Shown: piece by piece, positions 14,311-18,816 of the stretch
Layout: each line of letters starts with the position of its first letter
How positions within the stretch are numbered: position 1 is the stretch's first letter
From: Malacoraja senta
Lineage: Eukaryota
Reading direction: 5' to 3'
DNA length: 64,000 bases
NCBI GenBank assembly: GCA_038087875.1
Contig: CM075988.1
Span: 1,984,001-2,048,000, forward strand
Position numbers and translations under genes: made by a program
The notes under the pieces: model-generated
What the model saw: only the letters and a program-made list of their open reading frames with translations
Database searches by the model: none
Told to the model about the DNA's origin: nothing

Positions 14311-15609
14311 ACCATGCATGACCAGATGTGATAGGACTGCAGAACTTCAATCTGATGCATGGAGCGTGGGATCACTTAGGTTGATCTGTTGCACGCATAG
14401 GACACATGCTCAGGGGTATGGCATCACTTGGCTGGCACCAGGACATTTTTAGTTAGGCCCATTGCAGTTCATGTCTCACATCTGCATAGTTTTAAAATCC
14501 CAATGTTTTGAAAGAGGTGACTGTAGAGATAATTGCTCTGGTTATCGTCTTCCAAACATTTTATGGATTCTGAAATTATTACTGTGGATTGGAGGATAGT
14601 AAATGTGAACCCACTATTTATAAAAGAAAGGAGACTTAAAACAGAGAACTACTGGCCTATTAGTCTAATGGCCAGCACAGGGAAATACTGGAAAAATGTA
14701 ATGAAATATGCAGAAACAGAACACTTTGAGATGAATTGTTCCGAGTTTGTAGGATAGCGCCAGTGTATGGGGTTATCATTGGTTCAGTGCGGACTCAGTG
14801 GGCCAAAGGGCCTGACTCCACGCTGTATCTCTAAAGTCTAAAATAAAGTGCTTTACTTTGATTTAAGATTCTGATCTTGTATGGAATTAAATCACTTCCA
14901 GTCTTAATGTCAAATTCCCCAATGTTATGATCACTTTCTGTGAAAGGTCCCTTCAATACAAGATTAATAACTAATTATTTTTTTACTTCACACCATCTAT
15001 CTATCTATATAACTAAAAGTCTCATCTTGACCACTTCTTGTCTGCGCTGTATATTGATTTTAGAAAAAACGCTACCATATATCGCTATGATTTTTGGCCA
15101 TCTTACTCACAGTCCTCGTCTGCTGTGGCAGCCCTGAGGATTTTTCCGATTGATGAAAAATAAAAAAGTTATGAGTGTTGAGATCTTGAGATCAGCTGAT
15201 TGGTCCTCTCGCCTGCCAATCACCACGATGAAGGTAACGCCTTTTCCAGGAGGGGGTGGGGGGGGTCTATAAAACCAGGACTATAAAACCCCGGATGCCT
15301 GGACATGAGTCAGTCACTCTGGAAGATCGCGAGGGAGAGTCCACAACTGTGATTCTAATCTGTGAATCAACTGTGAGTCTGCAATGTACTTGCAATAAAT
15401 GATTTGTTAGCCCTTAATGACAATGCAATGAGTTGTTTGGCAATTTGGTGGCATGCACTCTGCTTGAAATGATATGAAATTGAATTTGGTGGCCTGCACT
15501 CTGCCTCGAATGCTATGAAATTGAGTTTGGCGGCCTGCACTCTGCCTGAAATGCTACGAAATTGAGTTTGGCTGCCTGCACTCTGCCTGAAATGGAATTG
15601 CAAGGAATA

Positions 15610-15870
15610 GCCCTGAGGGACTGCCAGCCCACCAGCCCTGAGTGACTGATCTGCCAGCCCACCAGCCCTGAGTGACTGAGCTGCCAGCCCACCAGCCCTG
15701 AGTGACTGAGCTGCCAGCCCACCAGCCCTGAGTGACTGAGCTGCCAGCCCACCTGCCCTGAGTGACTGACTGCCAGCCAACCAGGCCTGAGTGACTGAGC
15801 TGCCAGCCAGCAGGCCTGAGTGAGTGAGCTGCCAGCCCAGCAGGCCTGAGTGACTGAGCTGCCAGCCCAA
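15610..15870. repeat. ~30-bp minisatellite inside a Helitron unit
   Basis: About 8 copies of CTGAGTGACTGAGCTGCCAGCCCACCAGCC, preceded by ~35-bp GAAATTGAGTTTGG..CTGCACTCTGCC repeats. Confidence 0.95.
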
Positions 15871-16818
15871 GAATCCATTTGGCCCACATTGTCCATACAA
15901 GCCCTCTGGAAACCAGTCCCTTCACCCCACAACACCCATACTAGTGCTCCAGAAAGCCCCCAACCCCCCCCCCCCCCACTGGCCACCAATATTGGAATTG
16001 GTGGAGAGGTGGAATATTGTGTTGGGGGACCAGCCCTTCAGTGCGAACATGGGACCCAACGGGTCACACTTAGTCTAGTATACTATTAAACATCTCATCT
16101 TGTATGTATGTATACGTGTGTGTGTGTGTGTGCTTGTTTCCATATGCTCTTCTACCTTCGTCAAAACGCTAAGCGCTACAGTTTACATTTTTACAGATTA
16201 TTACTCACATTATCCCGGTAGACGCAATAAACATGTTCCCTTCACATTTCATGCTATATTTCATGTTATTGACGATTCAAGTTTGAAAAGAAGGGCAAAA
16301 AAGTTTCTCACACACAGCCTTTTTCCAGGACTTTCCACTGATGATGTCACAATGCCTCTCACAGTGCAACAAACACAATAGGCCCTCAAGCTGCCCAGTG
16401 CCAATGACATCACAATGGGACGTTACCAATGGTAACCACAGCTTCTCACAGACATCCTTTTTTCCAGGAGCTTCCAGTGAAGATAATCACAATGGGATCT
16501 TAAGCTGCCGAGTGCCACACCCCCCGCCCCTTCCTCCCCCTGGGTTATTCACACCCCCCACCCCCTCCCCCCTGGGTTATTCACATCCCCCACCCCACCC
16601 CTAGCGTTATTCCTGATTAAAGTTTCAAAAAAAGCCAAAACCACCTTTTAAAACACCAGCTTCCAGTGACGTCACAATGCTCCCCCCCTCCCAACGGTAC
16701 AGTGAAACAGAATATTCCACCACCTTCCAGTGACGTCAGGGGGAGGGCCTCATTTCAAAAACAGCTTCGTCAGCTCCCCAACGCACACCATTGGGGAAGC
16801 AGACCCAACGGGCACTTA

Positions 16819-17648
16819 AGGGCCTGTCCCACTTGGGTGACCTAATCTGCGAGTTTAGAAGAGTGTCTTCGACCTTCAAACTCGCAGCATGGTCGACACG
16901 TGGTCCTAGGAGGTCCCATGGGGTCACTGGAACTCTCCTTCATGCTCGAGGGAAGTTCCCAAATACTCGCAGCCTCAGCTACGTCGCTATGGTTCTTTTG
17001 AACTCGTAGTGCAGTGGAGTGGGGTCGCTATTTAGTTACAGGCAGTCGAGGGAAGCCGTGGGCAATCTCCTTCGCTGACCGGGCATTTTGATTGGCTCAT
17101 TGGAGTTTTCAGGACCAAGGAAAACCGACCGGTAGGTAAAATGCCCGCTAAATTTTATTAAACTTCTTAAAAGTGTCTCCACTCTGTCTCCCCCTTCTCT
17201 CCCCCTCTCTCCACTTCTCTCCCCTTCTTCCCCCCCCCCTCCACCTCCGTGCTCTCTAAAGGACTTACCGTTACTGTGCAGCCGTTTTACCTTCCTCTTC
17301 ATCGTGGGTGTGAATTTCAGACAGCGCTCCCCCGCTTTCCCTGGCCCCCGCCTTTGCGATGTGTGTGTGTGTGTGTGTGTGTGTGTGTGTGTGTGTGTGT
17401 GTGTGTGTGTGTGTGTGTGTGTGTGTGTGTGTGTTTGTGTGTGTGTGTGTGTGTGTGTGTGTGTGTGTGTGTGTGTGTGTGTGTATGTGTGTGTGTGTGT
17501 GTGTGTGTGCAGTCGGTCGATCCAGCTCGCAGTTTCAACGCGGACGGTCGATCCAGCTCGAGGTTTTCCAGGCGAGTGCTCTCGAGATTGAAGGTCGAAG
17601 ACCTTCAACCGAACTCGTGGATTAGGTCGCCCAAGTGGGACAGCCCCT
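16819..17648. mobile_element. PIF/Harbinger-type MITE
   Basis: ~37-bp TIRs AGGG(C/G)CTGTCCCACTTGGG(T/C)GACCTAATC..CGAGTT and a 3-bp TTA TSD (16816-16818, 17649-17651). Contains a (TG)n tract. Confidence 0.85.
17360..17509. repeat. (TG)n microsatellite
   Basis: About 150 bp, nearly perfect. Confidence 0.99.
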
Positions 17649-18816
17649 TTAGTCTAATATACCTATAAAAGTCTCATCTTGACTGTCTGTATGTCTGTAT
17701 GTGTGTTGTATGTTTTATATCATCCTCAAAACGTGATGAACTAGCGCTTAAAGATTTACAAATTCTGACACATTTTTTTACCTCCATGCCGTTATCAAGT
17801 TCACTTAACATTTGATGCTATATTTTACGTTACTGATGATCAAAGCTTTCAAAAAAGCCTAATTTAACATTTTTACTGTTAAAATCCTTCCTGCCAGCTT
17901 CCAACACACTTCGATACAAAGTTGCAAGACAGGAACACTGAACTTTTCACCTCAATGGGACATCACAGCTTGAACAGGAGGGGGAGGGCGAATTGGTATT
18001 GCAATTGGAACTGCTGCGGCAGGCAGGTGAAGTGCAATTAGATTTATTTTTAAAGTCCACTGTGCCATCATAGCTCCTGGCAGCACAGAAGGGGGAGGGT
18101 CAATTGATATTGCAATTGGGAAAGTGCAATTGGAATATTTTTTTGAAAGTCCAGTGCCTGGGGAGGCAGGGGAGTGCTAGAATCTTACGTTCGGCAACGG
18201 GTTGAGTTGGGGGCAACGCCTCCCGTGGGAGCTACGGGTTAATGGTGCAATATTGCATTGTGGAACGGGTTGCGTTGGGGGACCAGGCCTCCCATGTGTC
18301 ACGGGTCCCACTTGATCTAGTAAGATCTAAAACTGCCTTTCTCAAGATAGTTCCTCACTTATCAAAAAACCCATCAGCATGCACCACATTAGTACCATTA
18401 ACAGCCAACTTATGCAGTCTACAGATATTTGTGCCATTGATTTTTATGTCTTGTTTAAAGTTCTGTGTGCATTCAAGTAAAGATTCTCCAGTTTCAGTGG
18501 TTCTATGTAATAAGGAGCAGTGCTGCTTGCACTCCTTCCATAGAACCTGCTCCTAGTTCCTACCCCCCCCCCTACACTGCCCCGCTTCTGACATGGACCA
18601 TGACAGCCAGATTCTCCCTCCCCTCCCACATTGTTTCCTCTCCAGCCCCGAGGAGATGACATAAACCCTGGTATTGAACAGAGGCCCCGAACTTCACCAC
18701 GTCCCTTTTCCCTCCTCTAATCTGAATGGCACCCTAGACACAGAACAGCACAGTAAAGACACAAAATGCTGGAGTAACAGCGGGACAGGCAGTATCTATG
18801 GAGAGAAGGAATCGGT

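Follow-up and report, generated by a model that had tools for sequence, protein, structure and literature searches.

Three different Helitrons in a skate genome, probably nested by insertion at a fixed base within resident left ends

Background

The window analysed here is a stretch of 64,000 nucleotides from Malacoraja senta (GCA_038087875.1, contig CM075988.1, positions 1,984,001 to 2,048,000 of the forward strand). It contains an array of three different Helitron-like units joined head to tail: the second and the third lack their first word, while two extra TCTA words precede the first. The question raised by this locus is how units of different families came to be joined in this way, and whether the extra words keep count of the events.

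The array is a Helitron nest, made up of three different non-autonomous elements and probably generated by two insertions in succession, each of them placed four bases into the left end of the resident element, with the newest unit likely at the left and the oldest at the right. The heads of units 3 and 2 would be the two TCTA words. The newcomer would enter at the A^T step, TCTA^TA, inside the left end of the resident copy, and each insertion would strand the first word of the resident as a stub at the start of the array.

Results

Structure of the array

The features discussed are reported in Table 1. The array starts at 14996 with TCTA TCTA TCTATATAACTAAAAG, preceded by A(14995); junction 1 reads CTAG|TATACT (16078/9), junction 2 CTAA|TATACC (17657/8), and the right end is CTAG|T (18320/1). 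The three distinct units, both junctions and the two extra words are thus exactly as described in an earlier note on this DNA. The rebuilt empty site, ...CACCA^TAAGATCTAAAAC, agrees with the target motif A^T-N6/7-TAAA described below. At this locus two stubs correspond to two junctions: the outer TCTA would be the first word left by unit 3, the inner one that left by unit 2, which makes unit 1 the presumable youngest and unit 3 the presumable oldest member. The listed copy closest to unit 3 (C1:140553582) has TCTA as its head.

Table 1. Location of the Helitron-related features in the window
Feature	Position	Strand	Description
Second array	1410..5335	-	five units, the first 5'-truncated
Host A	14995..14995	+	left base of the original A^T target; its T lies at 18321
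Stubs	14996..15003	+	two TCTA words, seen in the sequence
Unit 1	15004..16078	+	complete non-autonomous Helitron (TCTATATAACTAAAAG ... hairpin-CTAG), 1,075 bp
Unit 2	16079..17657	+	headless Helitron (TATACTATTAAAC ... CTAA), ~750 bp minus the nested MITE
MITE	16819..17648		830 bp, between the hairpin of unit 2 and CTAA; TTA target duplication and terminal inverted repeats
Unit 3	17658..18320	+	headless Helitron (TATACCTATAAAAG ... CTAG), 663 bp; half of the hairpin deleted
Solo Helitron	22422..23145	-	TCTGTACTATTAC head, free of stubs; flanks A|TC...CTAG|T
Stub-bearing Helitron	43672..46320	+	head at 43701, ~five stub-like words before it; ~2.6 kb, 3' end damaged

The three units barely align: units 2 and 3 match at 67% over their first ~210 bp only, and units 1 and 3 have an 18-bp core in common and nothing else. 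Unit 1 features internal tandem repeats of 41 bp and 30 bp, and its family counts at least 1,407 copies in the genome. The hairpin is intact in unit 1 only (-5.5 kcal/mol, z -2.5); in unit 3 one arm is gone (z 0.8), and in unit 2 a MITE parts the hairpin from CTAA. Among the open reading frames of the array, no transposase and nothing recognisable is encoded.

The MITE, absent from the earlier account of unit 2, has TTA on either side, which fits a TWA target duplication, and a 30-bp terminal inverted repeat with 3 mismatches; its interior includes (TG)75. Its target duplication pattern would make it PIF/Harbinger-like.

The units are canonical Helitrons (Helitron1), non-autonomous. A|TC is the start of unit 1 and, in each family, of the free copies; the TC terminus of units 2 and 3 is absent at their junctions. 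All three units end in CTRR (CTAG at 16078, CTAA at 17657, CTAG at 18320), and in unit 1 a short hairpin lies some 10 bases upstream of the 3' end. Insertion occurs between A and T, without target duplication: T is the next base in 99% of 72 host flanks, and rebuilt empty sites align without gaps to paralogous host repeats. The genome features 112 matches to PF14214, several in frames over 1,300 aa; one related head runs for ~4 kb, with no CTAG right end between, into a broken Helitron-type open reading frame with a PF14214 match.

Headless junctions in the genome

Junctions where a right end is followed by TA and then by a left-end core were searched throughout the 1.94-Gb genome, with two non-overlapping exact patterns. 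These matched 564 and 1,268 times, for at least 1,832 junctions between a right end and a headless left end; reversed-pattern controls gave 0 matches for both, hence the junctions are not due to chance. As exact right ends number 14,317 (6,125 + 8,192), at least ~13% of them adjoin a headless left end. The first word is absent in nearly all of the 200 junctions listed; the patterns demanded TA after CTAR, and perfect CTAG|TC joins were seen separately.

Head families, counted by eye among the matches listed, differ in how often they are found headless. TATATTAC heads take part in junctions in 40 of 100 rows, free copies starting TCTATATATTAC accounting for 16 rows; TCTATAC heads, in the same list, are free in all 23 rows, with 0/23 junctions. 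For the young 470-bp family, 48 of the 100 listed rows are junctions without TCTA. Of the 68 rows of the family starting with TCATA, 47 are headless, with exactly TCATA missing. The family of unit 3 (52 rows) includes 16 junctions, 26 free copies with a TCTC head and 10 TCTA-like heads. The head of unit 1 was found as a recipient at TCTA^ in 0 matches, as against 1,407 free heads. Tandem expansion, or the mobilisation of composites, could inflate such junction counts.

Stubs at the start of arrays

A 6.5-kb region was collected around 60 of the 100 listed junctions, corresponding to 58 distinct arrays, whose starts were scored by hand. Stubs are present in 28 of the 31 arrays with a scorable start, compared to 79 of the 1,407 copies of the family of unit 1 (p 3e-30); the remaining arrays of the sample have no start within 4.2 kb. 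Along with the exact loss of each family's first word at the junctions, this bears out the earlier proposal that newcomers insert at TCTA^TA in the 5' end of a resident.

For 17 arrays, including some found through their stubs, both ends could be resolved: stubs equal junctions in 11, exceed them in 5 and are fewer in 1. Some of the hand scores (L138, L142, L143, L169) are judgement calls. The two numbers are correlated (rho 0.64, p 0.005; permutation p 0.013), as expected from the earlier note, but the five arrays with an excess of stubs depart from a one-to-one relation. Fewer stubs than junctions are found in L113, L131, L154 and three decayed starts.

Mixed arrays are the most informative, since the stub words can be told apart. 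In three out of four, the TCTA or TCATA words correspond to the absent heads and follow the order expected from nesting: in L151, the sequence is A TCTA TCATA [leader] [unit without TCATA] [unit without TCTA] T, and the stub words of L020 and L153 likewise fit the missing heads. In the fourth, L138, a TCATA stub lies next to the leader, where TCTA is expected, with no clear match. This nested order upholds the part of the earlier note which placed the youngest unit at the 5' end and the oldest at the 3' end. The rise in divergence also anticipated there is not significant: upstream right ends are nearer to their closest neighbours in 43 of 76 pairs (p 0.30). Within the trimer array, the distance from the nearest neighbour is 0.059 for unit 1 and 0.098 for unit 3.

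Alternative origins of the junctions

An alternative, which we consider quite improbable, is that the junctions are rolling-circle concatemers, or imprecise circles closed at TCTA^TA, followed by unequal exchange, the stubs being due to microsatellite slippage. Tandem arrays are a known product of Helitrons (PMC5876387), same-family runs of the 470-bp unit do exist, with units of L107 only 2.6-2.8% apart, at the low end for that family, and a few perfect CTAG|TC junctions are found (L024, L128, L154); long pure (TCTA)n runs, moreover, surely slip. Concatemers are expected to show precise CTAG|TC joins between near-identical units, while both junctions of the trimer lack the first word and its units are dissimilar. 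Most arrays mix families, in over 40 different neighbour pairs (hand count), and units from the same array are no closer to each other than units from different ones (12 vs 219 pairs, p 0.29). Neither the stubs in most scorable arrays, nor the TCATA stubs found where a TCATA head is missing, are predicted by this hypothesis. Simple rolling-circle copying, already discounted in the earlier note, is thus contradicted both by the mixing of families and by the lack of likeness within arrays.

It is very unlikely that self-targeting is rare, and that junctions and stubs were inherited together from a small number of one-time nests multiplied as composites, from the outer TC to the last CTAG. Composite mobilisation has been published (PMC4224331, PMC5148889), and some pairs do recur, such as the young family upstream of a TATACTTA head in several arrays. 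On the other hand, neighbour pairs are very diverse, and the distribution of stubs over the tree of the family of unit 1, a star-like tree of low power, shows no clustering (see below). Junction 1 has 5 exact matches in the genome; the four other loci, when fetched, show different neighbours or, where the end is seen, no unit 3 (the end is out of view in two). The trimer is therefore not a fixed recurring unit.

Stubs on solo copies

Two successive insertions into resident left ends remain the preferred origin of the trimer; the stubs, taken by themselves, are less faithful witnesses. A strict count, where each stub derives from one insertion at the locus and stubs equal units minus one, is exact at the trimer and in the 11 resolved arrays mentioned above, yet as a general rule it is refuted, and the chance that it accounts for the data is very small. 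The right end was found in 43 of the 60 copies fetched among the 79 stubbed copies of the family of unit 1: 5 are array leaders and 38 are solos. Adding three known arrays, leaders are 8 out of 46, and the other 38 of the 46 are solos; the proportion of leaders does not differ significantly from the 0/11 of unstubbed controls (p 0.19, computed with 12 controls). A spanning paralog is available for 18 of the 38 solos, the other 20 having none: ten of these 18 stubs are not host sequence, four are, and four are ambiguous.

TCTATAC heads behave similarly: although almost never recipients, ~58 of the 100 listed carry stubs, ~33 of them with TCT words, and all four stubbed copies for which the right end was seen are solos. 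No junction matching the TCT-type stubs was found among the 30 where a base other than T follows CTAG. In the young family, the youngest, 46 free heads carry on average 4.0 stubs, compared to about one to two junctions each, an excess of ~2-4-fold. The (TCTA)n run thus fails as the general tally of events that the earlier note took it to be, with solos carrying the same runs, an outcome which the note itself had named as refuting it, and stubs in excess of junctions in 5 of the 17 resolved arrays. The number of stubs would rather set an upper bound on insertion events, since stubs have further sources.

Several such sources were considered and rejected. Host microsatellites hold for the four solos with a host stub and fail for the ten without. 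Collapsed nests of unit 1 copies into copies of the same family are excluded by the finding of 0 junctions of this kind. TCT stubs are not the residue of T^A insertion: none of the 30 non-T junctions fits, and these resemble point mutants. Inheritance from a single stubbed master within the family of unit 1 is not reflected in its tree (84 rows, four segmental-duplicate rows excluded), where the stub label, with 21 changes against 21.7 after shuffling, is unclustered; judging from this comparison of sequences, independent origins of the stubs are weakly favoured.

The further sources would most likely be carry-over, when the leader of a nest is re-mobilised from an outer TC, the collapse of same-family nests, plausible in the young family, and a duplication of the left end's first few bases. 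The TCT and TCTATA stubs hint at one more step taking place at the left end, as well as at a way in which microsatellites could be born. It is possible, if somewhat doubtful, that aborted rolling-circle starts left the prefixes found on solos (TC, TCT, TCTA, TCTATA) as scars, and that the transposase picks its targets with the site that reads its own left end, residents being built-in, base-precise landing pads. An aborted start would consist of a nick, extension by a few bases and re-joining. If so, left ends would log every visit of the transposase and would seed (TCTA)n microsatellites genome-wide.

Target motif and preference for resident left ends

TAAA starts between +7 and +10 in 37 of 72 host flanks, but in only 3 of 65 control positions (p 4e-10); in 35 of the 37 it lies at +8/+9. 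The extended host target is therefore A^T-N6/7-TAAA, with TAAA starting 8-9 bases on. The five recipient heads all feature TAAA at +8 or +9 after the A^T step, as in TCTA^TATATTAC-TAAAA, TCTA^TATACTTT-TAAAA and TCATA^TAACTAT-TAAAA, and are found headless, behind the CTAG of another copy, 48-71% of the time. Left ends which are not recipients have TAAA at +7 or +10, or C before T, and are almost never headless.

In a weight matrix, recipient heads score 6.2-7.9, higher than three quarters of the real host sites. The TCTA^ site of unit 1 itself outscores the median real target, with 5.4, but is never hit, so the spacing rule must be regarded as post hoc. About 0.5-0.75 million host sites score 6 or more, and these received 12 of the 72 insertions. 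From the motif alone, assuming 30,000 copies, an occupancy of ~1-2% is estimated, in comparison with the 48-71% of recipient heads: an excess of at least 25-fold, based on the 72-site matrix and the assumed copy number, which suggests targeting beyond the short motif. Probably, one surface of RepHel serves both to grip its own left end and to pick its targets, and the left end of a resident acts as a landing pad.

Little is known of target capture by Helitron transposases, and the spacing rule (A^T, TAAA at +8/+9) also fits the element's own left end; a one-base, one-construct test of it would be feasible in cell assays already in use.

Comparison with related organisms

In two related organisms (A and B), contigs continue from the flank through the stub region and enter the same kind of head; they are ~4-7% divergent in the flank, and one has a single gap over 182 bases. 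As both contigs enter the same kind of head, the nest looks older than the splits from these organisms. A contig from a third one (C) spans the flank only. The earlier note suggested looking for orthologous loci lacking one unit and one stub; no allele without a unit was seen over 14300-15430, the region compared, which lies outside the joints to units 2 and 3.

Relation to known systems

Earlier publications report self-insertion, multiple 5' termini and a preference of Helitrons for the vicinity of other Helitrons. For FoHeli of Fusarium oxysporum (Chellapan et al. 2016, PMC5148889), self-insertion has been proposed along with repeated 5' termini: according to the legend of Fig. 7, a nick at the leftmost 5' end and a stop at the first 3' end would carry over the extra terminus. 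One copy is inserted 2 bp from another, and a triple may derive from a double insertion into a 5' end. The FoHeli ends are non-canonical, Helitron2-like, the cases few and the duplicated ends 31-85 bp long; unlike here, the parts of that paper drawn upon give no fixed insertion base, spacing rule or count of stubs against units.

Maize Helitrons (Dong et al. 2011, PMC3288121) are canonical TC...CTAG elements, with multiple termini due to nested insertion. They prefer to insert near or inside Helitrons, and 17.6% have multiple 5' termini; Yang and Bennetzen 2009 and Du et al. 2009 are cited in that study. In the sections used for this comparison, positions are not base-precise, and neither 4-5-base stubs nor a cause in the sequence are described.

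Helraiser (PMC4778049, PMC5876387) resembles the present elements in its head-to-tail products and in insertion at A^T without duplication, with a preference for AT-rich DNA, strongest 3' of the site. Its circles, as reported in these passages, have precise CTAG|TC joins of one element, whereas here the first word is missing from the junction and is found back at the array start, and neighbours belong to different families. Tandem dimers of transposable elements (McGurk and Barbash 2018, PMC5932611) are similar in that site preference gives head-to-tail tandems during active transposition. As far as the text consulted goes, those dimers reuse a duplicated host target, whereas the present insertions duplicate nothing and are directed at the left end of the element itself.

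In the portions of published accounts consulted, the Helitron target is described only as an AT step within AT-rich sequence. Neither a fixed left-end insertion base nor short stubs nor a spacing rule were found described in the literature consulted, although other papers and supplements may cover part of this. The data likely reflect a real, genome-wide and base-precise form of Helitron self-insertion, and the mechanism put forward in the earlier note is likely right at this locus. The spacing rule would also account for mixed head-to-tail arrays without rolling-circle concatemers, and the stub words would allow families to be ordered in time. For annotation, the proportion of right ends adjoining a headless copy in this genome is a warning.

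Other Helitrons in the window

The solo copy at 22422..23145 had been contrasted with the array for its lack of a stub. The stub is indeed missing, but the copy starts with TCTG and has a head of another type, almost never seen as recipient and often stubbed (the ~58 of 100 listed copies reported above); it is therefore not a representative control.

The Helitron at 43672..46320, where no internal right end or second unit was found, is an exception, within the window itself, to the tally of stubs.

The second array has its right ends at 4951, 3793, 3001 and 2465, all junctions, and at 1410. At the 3001 junction the stubs are internal, the sequence reading CTAG|TA TCTA TCTATATAC.

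A recurrent Helitron target

The same position of a LINE-derived repeat, GGCCCA^TATCCC...TAAA, has been entered by many independent Helitron insertions, and the repeat is therefore a recurrent target. The cases are drawn from the listed rows of the TCTATAC-head and young 470-bp families (G000:C1), and from three further loci of the same genome (L161, L164 and L104). The stub words carried by these insertions differ, ranging in number from 0 to 4 each. For the young 470-bp family, one headless left end is followed, 6 kb downstream and in the same orientation, by a PF14214 match (G000:C1:103021619-103028273); this arrangement possibly links the family to its coding partner.

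Inverted left ends and internal right ends

Left ends paired back-to-back, in inverted orientation, with short TA or TCTA runs between them, are found at G000 positions C1:125842179, C1:48560413 and C1:49382403, and at locus L121: these pairs would be the product of opposite-strand insertion at or near a left end. In loci L108, L130, L131 and L155, internal right ends terminate at ...CACTTGGTC; where TAG would be expected, they continue into simple repeats or into other sequence, and they may be read-through ends.

Other elements of the window

Additional elements of the window, with their localization and strand where reported
Feature	Position	Strand	Description
MITE	16819-17648		inside the right end of unit 2 (middle unit of the three-unit nest); TTA duplication, 30-bp inverted ends
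Second Helitron array	1410-5335	minus	five units
Single Helitron, 2.6-kb	43672-46320		about five stub-like words ahead
LINE fragments	5835-6842 and 27362-28720		endonuclease and reverse transcriptase matches

No Pfam match was found for a 534-aa frame at 31344-32948, nor a second copy of the MITE among the loci compared from this genome; ends resembling those of the MITE were glimpsed in locus L137 and in one listed row of the TCATA-head Helitron family. In the five-unit array, the first unit is 5'-truncated and adjoins a 13-bp host duplication, and internal stubs are present within one junction. Inside the single Helitron are GC-rich minisatellites, and its right end is damaged.
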